In this document: positions 43,247 through 63,905 of the stretch, in pieces
How the letters are laid out: every line of letters begins with the position of its first letter
Position numbering within the stretch: position 1 is the stretch's first letter
DNA from: Eledone cirrhosa
Taxonomy: Eukaryota
Reading direction: 5' to 3'
DNA: 64,000 bases
Assembly (NCBI GenBank): GCA_964016885.1
Contig: OZ024741.1
Coordinates: 209,002,001-209,066,000 of the forward strand
The notes under the pieces: model-generated
Database searches by the model: none
Seen by the model: only the letters and a program-made list of their open reading frames with translations
Told to the model about the DNA's origin: nothing
Translations under genes and position numbers: made by a program

Positions 43247-43596
43247 ATAAATCTACCAAAAGTTTACGGTAGTGTCCAATCCGTATGAAGAACTCAATGT
43301 AATCCGGATATCATGAAAAGAAGAGATGCATTCAAAAATCACTTTCGGTGAAAGATAAACGGAATACAGAGTCAAGATAAATTATTAAAAAAATAATGAA
43401 TAAACAAAGAAACAGTTCCTTATATTAAACAAAAAAAGTTCATTATTTTACGATCGTTTCTAGGACATAGATCTTTTGAATATGCATACCAATTCTAACA
43501 CATATATGTCCTAGAAACGATCGTAAAATAATGAACTTTTTTGTTTAATATAAGGAACTGTTTCTTTGTTTATTCATTATTTTTTTAATAATTTAT
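43247..43596. mobile_element. Palindromic pLTR-only insert in (TA)n, with a hammerhead 3' half on both arms
   Basis: Arms 43377-43469 and 43505-43596; tatgtccta-GAA-ACGATCGT-A-aaataatg. Confidence 0.7.
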
Positions 43597-43614
43597 ATAT
43601 ATATATATATATAT

Positions 43615-44700
43615 CTAGGGCGGGTAAAATTCCCGAGATCCATGGACGAGTTCTCTCCAGCGGTCTCCCTCATTATCGCTGCCATGTCCTGCGTCTCCAA
43701 CCGACCAGTGTCTGTCCTTAGGGCATCAACATAGGTTATCCTTGGTCTTTCTCTTCCAGTGTGTCCATGTAGGGGCTCCCACAGGAGCACTGAGTGCAAT
43801 GTCAACTCTGGATCTCGGTGAGCATATCCAGCTAACCTCAGTCTGCTCTGTGTCAGTTTTAAGCTGACTTTCGGGAGGCTCCCATACAGCTCTGAGTTTT
43901 TCATCCTCAGTGTATACTGATTAATGTTCAGAGCCATCCTTAGCATTCTCGTGTAGCACCCATCCACCATCTGAGTGAGTCTCTTGGTCAGTGTCCAAGT
44001 CTCAGACCCGTACAGCAGCACAGACTCCACTACAGCAATGAAGAGGCGGACCTTCAGGTCTTCACGAAGGTCCGACTTCCACACCGATCTCAAGCTGTGG
44101 CACGCCGCCCAGGCTTTGCTCTTCCTCTCAACCACATCATCTTCCGCATTCCCAATCTTTGCTCCCAAATACAGGAAGTGCTCAACCAATTCTAGCGGCT
44201 TCCCGCCTACATTAGTGATCCCCTCTGGCCTCTCAACATTCTCTACCAGATATTTTGTTTTAGTCTCATTCATTCTCAGCCCCACACTCATCGACACAGT
44301 CTCAACCTCCTGCATCAAATACTCTGCCACCTTCACTGTATTTGTCACCAAAACTATGTCGTCGGCAAATTCAGCATCTGATATCTTTTTCGCCTTAACT
44401 CTCCTGCTCTGAGCCGGTGCTACAGTAAAGACAGAGTCCTGGTGTTTCTCCAGTGCAAGGCGCATACAATAGTCCACTACGATAAAAAGGTAGGGAGCCA
44501 ATGTATCTCCCTGGAGCACTCCAGCCAGTATCTCAAAGAACTCTGTCATCCCATCAGGTGTAATGACTTCGGCTTTGGTGTTGGTGTAGAGCAGTGATAT
44601 CAGGTCCACTATCTTCTTGGGGATTCCATAAGCCTGTAAGATCTTCATCAGGCAGTGACGGTCCACAGAATCAAAGGCCTTTCTAAAGTCAATGCGGTCA
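43615..44700 (-). mobile_element. 5'-truncated RTE-clade LINE in (TA)n
   Basis: IDFRKAFDSV, GVLQGDTLAPYLF, FADD, FLYLG, LLYGSETW; uninterrupted frame. Confidence 0.88.
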
Positions 44701-44723
44701 TATATATATATATATATATATAT

Positions 44724-45746
44724 AAAACATGACAAGAAAGAAGAATACTGCGTGGTTGCACATAGGTTACATATGATAAAAAAAGTCCTTCGTCAGTGAT
44801 TTTCCAACCATCATTAGTATTTCATCGCATTAAAAATCAGATACCTCAGGTTGGTGCGAGCAATAACTAAAAAAGGTTATTGGGACCAGTAATTCGCGTA
44901 AAGCGAGGGGGACAAGTAAACAACATAGAAGGATAAAAGCAAACCGAAGATAGGAAAATAAACAAGCAACATGGTTGTCCGGTCAGCGTAAGCTGGGTGG
45001 ATTTCATGAGCGAGAGAGGTACAGACCGTCCGATGTGTGTGAGATGTAAGCAAGAAGAGACCCACTACAAGCCAAACGGGAGGAAGTGAGAAGGGGAGAA
45101 ACAGAGAGTGAGTGAGTGGAAGTGTGAAGAAGAGAGAAACAGAGAGTGAATGAGTCAGTCGAGAGAAAGTGTAACTGACAGAGAGAGCGGGGAAGCAGTA
45201 AGAGAGAAACATACAAACTCAGTCGAGGTAAATATATATAAAAAAAACATGACAAGAAAGAAGAATACTGCGTGGTTGCACATAGGTTACATATGATAAA
45301 AAAGTCCTTCGTCAGTGATTTTCCAACCATCGCATTAAAAATCAGATACCTCAGGTTGGTGCGAGCAATAACTAAATAAAGTTATTTGGACCAGTAATTC
45401 GCGTAAAGCGAGGGGGACAAGTAAAAAACATAGAAGGATAAAAGCAAACCGAAGATAGGAAAATAAACAAGCAACATGGTTGTCCGGTCAGCGTAAGCTG
45501 GGTGGATTTCATGAGCGAGAGAGGTACAGACCGTCCGATGTGTGTGAGATGTAAGCAAGAAGAGACCCACTACAAGCCAAACGGGAGGAAGTGAGAAGGG
45601 GAGAAACAGAGAGTGAATGAGTGGAAGTGTGAGGAAGAGGTCAGTCGAGAGAAAGTGTAACTGACAGAGGGAACGAAAGAAGGTGAGAGAAACAGAGAGA
45701 GCGGGGAAGCAGTAAGAGAGAAACAGACAAACGTAGCCGAGGTAAA
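44724..45746. repeat. Direct tandem duplication of an approximately 510-bp unit, possibly a pLTR on the minus strand
   Basis: 44724-45231 resembles 45246-45746; both start aaaacatgacaagaaag and end cgaggtaaat-(TA)n; minus strand carries CTGACGAAGGAC without the GAAA half. Confidence 0.85.
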
Positions 45747-61990: not shown

Positions 61991-63082
61991 TGATCTATAT
62001 TTTCGATACCTTCTGAGTTCAAATGCTACCAGTTTGACTTTTTTCATTCTTCCAAGGCCATTAAGTAGCTGTCATGTACTGAGATTTGTCGCAGTGAATA
62101 GATTACGGCGCCTTCTCCTCCTCCTCCTCCTCCTGCTCATCATCATCATCATCATCATCATCATAGTCGTCGTCGTCGTCGTCGTCGTCGTCATCATCGT
62201 CATCAGCGTCGTCATCGTCGTAGTCATCATTGTCATCAGCGTCGTCATCGTCATCAGCGTCGTCGTCGTCATCATCATCATCATCTTCTCTATCGAATTT
62301 CAACCTTGGCTCTATGTTAGAAATCGATTCTATTTTAGAATTTTATATGAAAAGGGAGAAGCCAGAAAGATGTGGGTGAGAAAAAGAGAAGAAAGTGGAA
62401 GAGTAATATTGAAAAAGAAGGAGTTAAAGTGGGAGGAGAGGGAAAGCTGGGGAATTGGAAGGTAGGAGTGAGGTAGTTTTCCTTATAAAAATTTAAAAAA
62501 TTAACAAAAAATATTTTCAGAAAATAAAATAGACATATAAACGGATCAGAACAGTTTTTCTATGATTTATGATTACAAAACAAACAGCTGAGTCTAGTTC
62601 ATGCGTCAGATTGAATTAAATAACTTATCTTCCATTCCAAAACCATCCAGCAACTGCTTTGGCGGAAGTCCACATCTCCTTTATCTTAACTTTTCATCTC
62701 TCTGTGTTTCGGTCTGTCTGTCATTAAGTTGGTCTGTCTGTGCGTCTGTCTCCCTCTTTGTGTTCGTCGGTTGTCTATCTGTCGGTGTGCCTGTATGTTT
62801 GTTTCTCTTTGTGTTGGTCAGTTGTCTCTCTGTTTGGTGTGTCTGCTCGCTGATACGTCTATCTGCCTATCTACATGCCCAATTCTATAAACAAATTATA
62901 AGCAAACTATTTTATTTCTGACAGCCACGCATACTTAACACACACACACACACGCATAAATATAAGCAAACTATTTTATTTCTGACAGCCACGCATACTT
63001 AACACACACACACACACGCATAAACATATATGCAGCCCACATATATACAGACTAATCCACATGCATACGTTACATACATATA

Positions 63083-63623
63083 TGATGACTGCCCCCTCGT
63101 TATCGAATATGGCCATTGCACGTTATACCATTATTAATAATTATTAATTAATTCTATCGTGCAATGCCTGTGCGTGAAGATTTTTTTTAAAGTGAGGAAA
63201 GACTGTGCACTAAAGCAATCCCACTCTCTGAGCGACAGTAGCTATAACCCGAAAAGAAGAAAAGATCAACATCATCGCTAACTACTGAGCCGCAGGTTTT
63301 ATATCGGTGTTATCCCAGTTTCCAGAGTTGGCTTCTCCCTCCTAGAAGAATGCCCTGAGAAAGGCTAGGGGTCCTTCACTCACAGTGGTTTAACCGCGCG
63401 GTACATGTGTATATACATATTTACACACTTTCGGATGGCCGTTGACTCTTATGAGTTCTTCTGCCCTTTGTCAGGTTTTGTTTTTTGTCCTGCAGGGTGT
63501 CCAAAATCACCCTCCTCACCAAGTAAACTTGGTGGGGTTGCCGGTTTAGTCGCCGACGACCCGACCATGCGACAGGTTGTACTGGGTTACATGTTACCAG
63601 TAGCACTCAAGAGTGACCCGACA
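63083..63623 (-). mobile_element. RTE-tailed non-autonomous family: 5' head (63425-63623) and probable 3' part (63083-63260), in (CATA)n
   Basis: Head is the reverse complement of about 35805-36000; tail reads gcagtcatcat-atatgtatg on the minus strand. Confidence 0.6.
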
Positions 63624-63739
63624 TACATACATACATGCATACATACATACATACATACATACATACATACATACATACATACATACATACATACATACAT
63701 ACATAGTTATATTAATTTAGTTCGATTCATATATATATA

Positions 63740-63905
63740 TAGGAAAAGGTTCAGGACCCCGACGGCAGAGTTCAAGAAATAGCCGCCGAAACGGCTTGAG
63801 TTCTGCCGCAGGTGTGCTGAACCTTTTCCTATTAACCACTCTACTACCCAAAGTATTGAGTATTCTAGTGCGTTATGGTCCACCTGGTTCCCTACCACAC
63901 ATCCT
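63740..63905. mobile_element. Palindromic mini-insert next to (TA)n; family of 51598-51814
   Basis: aggaaaaggttcag...cggcagagttcaag pairs imperfectly with cttgagttctgccg...ctgaaccttttcct, around aaatagccgccgaaacgg. Confidence 0.7.

Follow-up and report, generated by a model that had tools for sequence, protein, structure and literature searches.

Endonuclease-bearing (EN+) Penelope-like elements (PLEs) are described, in the excerpts of the published papers on which every comparison in this text is based, as units that consist of a pseudo-long terminal repeat (pLTR), an adjacent inverted copy truncated at its 5' end, and a tail at one end (PMC8557442; PMC3846280). Hammerhead ribozymes have been reported in pairs on opposite strands, 100-700 bp apart (PMC4209133). 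In vitro, Poseidon PAc cuts and extends both target strands, with two start sites that bound the tail and with uncleaved RNA as the template (PMC11167929). How, then, do the inverted structures of PLEs form? PMC8557442 lists this among the open questions. Here we analyze a 64,000-nt stretch of Eledone cirrhosa DNA (assembly GCA_964016885.1, contig OZ024741.1, positions 209,002,001 to 209,066,000; hereafter the window) from a 3.0-Gb genome, in which many fragments of PLEs and of long interspersed nuclear elements accompany five short inserts, each made up of two inverted arms. With a probability of roughly 0.65, we read these inserts as head-to-head fragments of two complementary DNAs (cDNAs) that were made at a cut (TA)n site, each on a different strand, reached a fixed RNA 5' end and were then joined end to end.

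Inserts, families and parent elements

The five inserts lie in or beside (TA)n tracts, their inverted arms are unequal in length, and the window check for open reading frames (ORFs) found no element ORF within them. In these respects, and in the assignment to four sequence families, the original prediction made from the window was borne out. Self-BLAST recovers the arm pairs at 43377-43596 (5.8e-86), 51676-51814 (1.2e-56), 52000-52170 (3e-7) and 63739-63832 (5.9e-10), and the arms within 56724-57063 are 168 nt each and 99% complementary. The four pLTR families are A (insert at 43247), B (51598 and 63740), C (51828) and D (56729). All five inserts carry a tail on one arm only, the longer arm of each being the PLE tail, which in full-length copies of families A and D extends toward the start of the ORF. 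The features are as follows, where boundary A is the adenine at the family boundary described in the next section.

43247..43469, minus strand: family A inverted arm, a 130-nt tail (43247-43376) plus the pLTR end with the hammerhead 3' half
43465..43596, plus strand: family A forward arm, no tail, starting at offset +69
51598..51740, minus strand: inverted arm of family B, its tail at 51598-51675 and its boundary A (+1) at 51740
51741..51748, no strand assigned: short junction insertion, its sequence copied out of the adjacent arm
51749..51814, plus strand: tailless forward arm of family B, with its boundary A at 51750 and the hammerhead 3' half beginning at 51772
51829..52124, minus strand: family C tail arm with the entire stem II and a degenerate core (52110)
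52126..52170, plus strand: family C short arm, no tail, beginning 3 nt 5' of GAAA
56729..56891, minus strand: family D arm, no tail, complete hammerhead, boundary A at 56891
56892..56895, no strand assigned: family D 4-nt junction insertion that duplicates the arm-start sequence
56896..57155, plus strand: family D tail arm, complete hammerhead (core 56964, GAAA 57007), boundary A at its start, 56896
63740..63776, minus strand: short arm of a variant family B subfamily, no tail, ending in stem III at offset +29
63775..63905, plus strand: family B tail arm, starting at offset +9, with 2-nt microhomology to its partner arm

Several details of the original prediction had to be revised. At 43377-43596, where both arms were said to begin just 5' of GAAA, the right arm begins 49 nt away. 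At 52000-52170 the hammerhead half with the CUGANGA core was said to be missing; the supposed spacer belongs to the left arm, whose start is a C|A site that lies 81 nt 5' of GAAA; this arm includes the degenerate core on the minus strand. Both arms of the insert at 56729-57155 contain a complete hammerhead (cores at 56964, plus strand, and 56823, minus strand), and the palindrome at its centre (56881-56906), interpreted earlier as a junction hairpin, was created by the join, since long copies carry a T-rich run at this place. The family B motif that had been called less canonical proves to be an ordinary hammerhead 3' half whose stem III is longer, and long copies of this family have a U3-A8 type core.

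Exact motif matches in the genome number 590 for family A, 14,378 for B, 16 for C and 24,808 for D, and a gapped pattern finds 13,542 family B palindromes. Queried with 63 nt of family B, a DNA search gave no match, and pattern searches succeeded. Nearly all loci that were inspected have (TA)n at both ends. The predicted PLE origin is upheld by parent ORFs, which were located for three of the four window families (A, B and D): one locus (L244) is a complete D element with a pLTR, a 798-aa ORF and a second pLTR with tail, another (L191) is a full-length A element with a broken ORF, and three loci (L302, L303 and L305) hold broken family B ORFs. For family C, tblastn on its 16 loci matched two, and in neither is the match tied to a C copy.

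The parents of families A, B and D, and of the family E introduced below, share an RW-type motif, seen separately in B, and, in alignment, a DKT motif, a CxCX5C linker and C-terminal CxxC and CxH motifs. A single ORF with reverse transcriptase (RT) plus, at its C terminus, a GIY-YIG endonuclease lies between pLTRs, the domains being called by these motifs, and Pfam and PDB sequence searches with the parent ORFs gave no match. By the motifs described in PMC8557442, the parents are Hydra-type EN+ PLEs. They resemble the Hydra clade in the RW-type and DKT motifs, the linker, the C-terminal CxxC and CxH, canonical hammerheads and the (TA)n target, and differ from it in that the elements here exceed 3 kb through long 3' untranslated regions (UTRs); the likeness is one of motif description (PMC8557442). 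The inserts are thus head-to-head pLTR ends of Hydra-type PLEs in the published pattern of an inverted copy plus tail, and they require no separate new class of element.

A self-propagating palindrome family similar to miniature inverted-repeat transposable elements was considered and rejected, as there is no single inherited centre and the junctions vary. Some junctions do recur, and mirror pairs were found, such as (4,8)/(8,4) and (4,10)/(10,4).

A fixed 5' boundary of the arms

The 5' ends of arms were mapped onto natural long copies, leaving out loci chosen by junction-specific patterns (for the family concerned) and six family A matches that share the motif alone. At positions -2 to +2 relative to boundary A, the 5' end rate per base is 5.7% in family A (17/98), 16.8% in B (23/122) and 8.9% in D (28/104), and in the 37 bases upstream it is 0.18%, 0.58% and 0.25%, respectively (p 6e-12 or lower). 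Further ends fall at +3 to +12, with the largest share in family B. In agreement, hand counts of motif spacing give 239-263 nt in 8 of 11 close A pairs and 238-248 nt in 10 of 18 close D pairs. Within the window, both arms start at the boundary in the B insert at 51598 and in the D insert at 56729, each with a short copied insertion. In the family A insert the inverted arm begins at family offset +109, in the 3' strand of stem II; because neither of its arms is at the family boundary, this insert is a random truncation of the ordinary kind.

The boundary has the form Y|A in all four families in which it was mapped (A, B, D and E), and the base that precedes boundary A in the scored long copies is C in 90/93 cases and G in 0/93. 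Relative to the ribozyme, the boundary sits at stem I in A, on the loop side of stem II in B, and 5' of the core in D (by 66 nt) and in E (by 86 nt). The spacing is thus different in each of these families, and the boundary is not set by the ribozyme fold.

Family E served as a prediction, which was written before the search. The site was suggested by a locus of the same architecture in the window, outside the originally noted finding:

2023..5324, no strand assigned: family E tail arm with a long partner

Here an inverted tail arm (2023-2296), whose first base is the boundary A, is joined to a 5'-truncated PLE with an ORF at 2247-3914 and a 3' pLTR core at 5227. The search yielded 90 arms, 39 long and 51 truncated. 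Among the truncated arms, 8/51 begin on the predicted A (one of the eight being the window arm that suggested the site), 15/51 at -2 to +2 and 27/51 at -2 to +12, with 4/51 ends in the 37 bases upstream; the per-base rate is 6.0%, versus 0.26% upstream. The word TC|ACT is preserved across E subfamilies despite divergent flanks. As a pattern, the fixed boundary rule is well supported. A splice acceptor at the B boundary was rejected, as arms contain bases upstream of the AG.

Contigs of four sequencing runs were compared with the D parent. They show tail and pLTR ends, with only two joints between opposite strands, both away from the boundary; a single contig has a loose end that coincides with the boundary base. 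They were given no weight for the start site.

Probable origin from two cDNAs and the nature of the boundary

Are the two arms of a palindrome the product of one strand or of two? Junctions were tabulated as 118 records (19 A, 70 B and 29 D, a few of which are one junction present in two overlapping loci). At least one end falls within -4 to +12 of the boundary in 95 of them. Exactly one arm is tailed in 80 of 85 palindromes, and each family has two fixed 3' ends, the pLTR end and the tail end. In 60 records it is the non-tail arm that extends further 5' and in 32 the tail arm, whereas the two are equal in 26; in 12 records the arms do not overlap, the tail arm ending within the tail. Junctions are blunt or show 1-6 nt of microhomology, insertions or a loss of 0-12 nt; tallies of microhomology length overcount insertions through end trimming and were not relied on. 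At one locus (L050, at ~1500) a family A arm is joined to an inverted family B arm, both within 10 nt of their own boundaries, which is likely a two-RNA event. The non-overlapping arms, the variability of which arm is longer, and the cross-family join together argue for two separately primed cDNAs rather than a single strand that folds back. With the one-tail asymmetry, they also sustain the part of the original prediction in which two oppositely primed cDNAs are joined at their ends, and they agree with the two start sites and the cutting of both strands seen in vitro (PMC11167929).

An improbable alternative is that a single strand folds back and primes itself, by cDNA snap-back or by self-priming on an antisense template as in PMC3846280. 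It would suit the finding that arms at one locus are nearly always of the same subfamily (arms are 2-4 times more similar within a locus than between loci, and even the most divergent pairs belong to one subfamily), as well as the perfect palindromic centres that are common in families D and B. However, a folded strand would not give non-overlapping arms in 12/118 records or a longer non-tail arm in 60/118, and neither loop-less symmetric joins nor the cross-family join would be expected from it. That the palindromes are artefacts of assembly or long-read chimeras can practically be dismissed, given that junctions differ among thousands of loci, that the two arms carry substitutions relative to each other, that their ends in (TA)n are fixed and that the tail is one-sided, and given that in contigs from public runs of three organisms the same tail end is followed by TA repeats.

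The boundary that the two cDNAs would reach is likely the transcription start of the pLTR, judging by sequence features. An initiator has the pyrimidine-purine form seen at the boundary. The TC|ACT of family E matches the initiator-like word TCACT of a rotifer pLTR (PMC3846280), and the start site and promoter of Penelope lie inside the pLTR, the promoter being internal (PMC2377424). The base before +1 is G in 15 of 29 untemplated arms, compared with 22 of 87 non-C arms that start further in (p 0.009). This test removed partner-templated bases, five TA runs, eight templated duplications and an amplified chimera, and its set includes loci chosen for a start at +1 after A, G or T. Unfiltered genome-wide letters before +1 (45 G, 44 T and 11 A among the first 100 of 4,262 in a hand count of family D; 12/100 G in family A and 9/100 G in family B) mix in partner-templated bases, duplications and long-copy variants, so the filtered test alone was used. 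An extra 5' G is a mark of cap copying in full-length L1 insertions (PMC11702581), and by analogy the extra G here is likely a copied cap.

The boundary could also be real and yet mark a place where the RNA is cut in processing or where the RT is programmed to stop. We regard this as unlikely: in family A a hexamer that resembles a poly(A) signal lies 8 nt upstream of the boundary, which there coincides with the 5' edge of the ribozyme, and families B and D have A-rich runs near it, but Y|A occurs at the boundary in four families although its position relative to the ribozyme differs, the boundary is far from the ribozyme cut site, and the excess of G suits a cap.

Two observations touch the boundary in their own right. 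In a chimeric A subfamily (L343, L345-L349, L355, L356, L360, L362, L363, L368 and L371, also L056/L057 and L172) the A pLTR is fused exactly at boundary A to the end of another repeat, presumably a SINE-like (short interspersed nuclear element-like) 3' end. This subfamily accounts for 13 of 30 loci in one family A set, occurs in inverted and tandem pairs and seems to have amplified itself. At four family B junctions (L066, L085, L097 and L030) long A/T runs beside the T run at the boundary suggest RT slippage at the RNA end.

A full-length D copy runs from the boundary through the ribozyme, then the pLTR end, then the tail end, to the ATG; therefore both priming sites would lie in the 5' UTR of an ordinary mRNA. 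We propose, with a little better than even confidence, that Hydra-type PLEs carry out a programmed twin priming, in which a dimer primes at the pLTR end and the tail end, run-off occurs at the capped 5' end and end-joining follows. At a cut (TA)n site, the two cDNAs would be primed on opposite strands, one of them at the pLTR end and its partner at the tail end; both would extend until they reach the RNA 5' end, which is fixed and probably capped; and the run-off cDNAs would be fused, likely by host end-joining. Priming in the 5' UTR would yield arms of 60-330 nt, and priming at the downstream pLTR would yield long copies. Overall, the mechanism is moderately supported.

Several observations weigh against this reading. 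Both arms are at the boundary in only two of the five window inserts, and neither is in the family A insert. Most family B ends lie 3-12 nt inside the boundary (65/122), and many fall in the 3' strand of stem II, because that strand lies just inside the boundary. Family C, with its few motif matches, has neither an established boundary nor an established parent. The G signal is modest, depends on exclusions of our own choosing and comes from families A and D; it is thin in B (1/2) and in E (3/8 at +1, two explicable by the partner arm). A TATA or downstream promoter element motif at the boundary is not clear by eye. Finally, the loci are mostly those first listed on one contig and do not form a random genome sample.

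Comparison with described systems places twin priming in context. The canonical EN+ PLE unit shares the head-to-head arms, the single tail, the pLTR hammerhead and the junction palindromes, and differs in its tails of 30-40 nt, compared with ~80-170 nt here; in the excerpts of these accounts no fixed 5' boundary or cap signature is described, and PMC3846280 invokes self-priming on an antisense template. Two RT start sites that bound the tail are common to the present families and Poseidon PAc. The start sites here mostly end in 2-3 nt able to pair with (TA)n, whereas those of PAc are non-homologous, and the ends and joining of the two cDNAs are not addressed in the excerpts of PMC11167929. Twin priming by L1 likewise gives two primed cDNAs whose ends are joined with short microhomology or insertions, and an extra G at full-length 5' ends; its second priming is opportunistic and its arms barely overlap, whereas here both sites are fixed and the overlap usually reaches the RNA 5' end (PMC11702581). 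Non-LTR retrozymes (LTR, long terminal repeat) are likewise ORF-less, PLE-derived and equipped with a type I hammerhead, but consist of direct tandem repeats with a ribozyme per unit, in contrast to inverted pairs with B arms that lack half the ribozyme (bioRxiv 10.64898/2026.07.22.740005). Identity with them was rejected, as the arms are inverted and the A and B window arms have no core.

A possible but doubtful addition, compatible with twin priming, is that complete tail arms are internally promoted and serve in trans as SINE-like templates, each hop building another palindrome around its own new junction. The 13,542 family B palindromes compared with 1,122 matches for one upstream-core pattern of that family, the internal promoter of Penelope (PMC2377424), and a nearest-neighbour comparison in which short arms are slightly closer to other short arms than to long copies would favor such templates. 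Against them, 73 of 124 short arms are equally near to long copies, the boundary base is gone from most B arms, and the mRNA of full-length copies suffices as a template.

If the twin-priming model is correct, each palindrome centre would be a fossil map of the element's transcription start, PLE promoters could be read from genome sequence alone, and the inverted PLE structure would be a by-product of priming sites in the 5' UTR. It would account for tens of thousands of ORF-less palindromes in the genome, and its answer, sense-strand and with two cDNAs, differs from the published idea of antisense self-priming. A start-site run-off rule for PLE inversions was not found in the literature searched, and older papers on PLE structure, which lay outside that search, may state it.

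The hammerhead ribozyme and the stem II rule

The original prediction held that self-complementary RNA stems, stem II of the hammerhead or another hairpin, supply the microhomology and so set the junction. The core, stems and GAAA of a predicted type I hammerhead are present in long copies of families A-E. For A and D the predicted fold contains stems I and II, which the minimum-energy fold of B or C lacks, and Rfam gave no match at the gathering score. If junctions were uniformly distributed, the 5' and 3' strands of stem II would be paired across the junction in ~8.7 of the 118 records (~0.5 in A, 7.4 in B and 0.9 in D); they are paired in none. In family A an upstream core exists, yet the junction sequence differs from the 5' strand of its stem II, an outcome that the original prediction had named as refuting, and the 5 nt of microhomology at the window join (43465-43469) are unpaired in the folded family ribozyme (pair probability 0.0). 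Junctions of families D and E cluster 60-90 nt off the ribozyme.

What could be said for the stem rule is that one end lies somewhere in stem II in 44 of ~118 records (5 A, 32 B and 7 D), mostly in family B, where the 3' strand of stem II sits 8-21 nt inside the boundary and a local effect could act. Microhomology at an inversion is by definition an inverted repeat in the RNA and therefore no proof of a fold. Junctions are non-uniformly distributed, as predicted. The stem II rule is largely refuted, and RNA stems are very improbable as the determinant of the junction; the ribozyme is a passenger that has no part in placing it. Ribozyme cleavage as the origin of arm 5' ends was also rejected, as the cut site is downstream, within the arms.

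Family B has a core of U3-A8 type, a type described in PMC4209133, in which C3-A8 variants are common (L272-L301). The start proposed for family B lies inside the ribozyme, such that RNA beginning there would have no core. In two long family A copies (L004 and L002) the stem II region of the hammerhead is unusually long, ~105 nt.

Nested insertion into the TA tracts of older elements is frequent among the loci, and in the window the family A insert adjoins the end of another (TA)n-targeting repeat family with inverted ends (10991-12397 and 42095-43224). A SINE-like repeat at 13300-13783 forms a 184-nt inverted pair, tail to tail across (TA)n/(GA)n, a geometry unlike that of the PLE palindromes. 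Further PLE-like ORF fragments and a sixth hammerhead-bearing pLTR are found at 6673, 30424-32278, 39202-40879 and 41425-42231.

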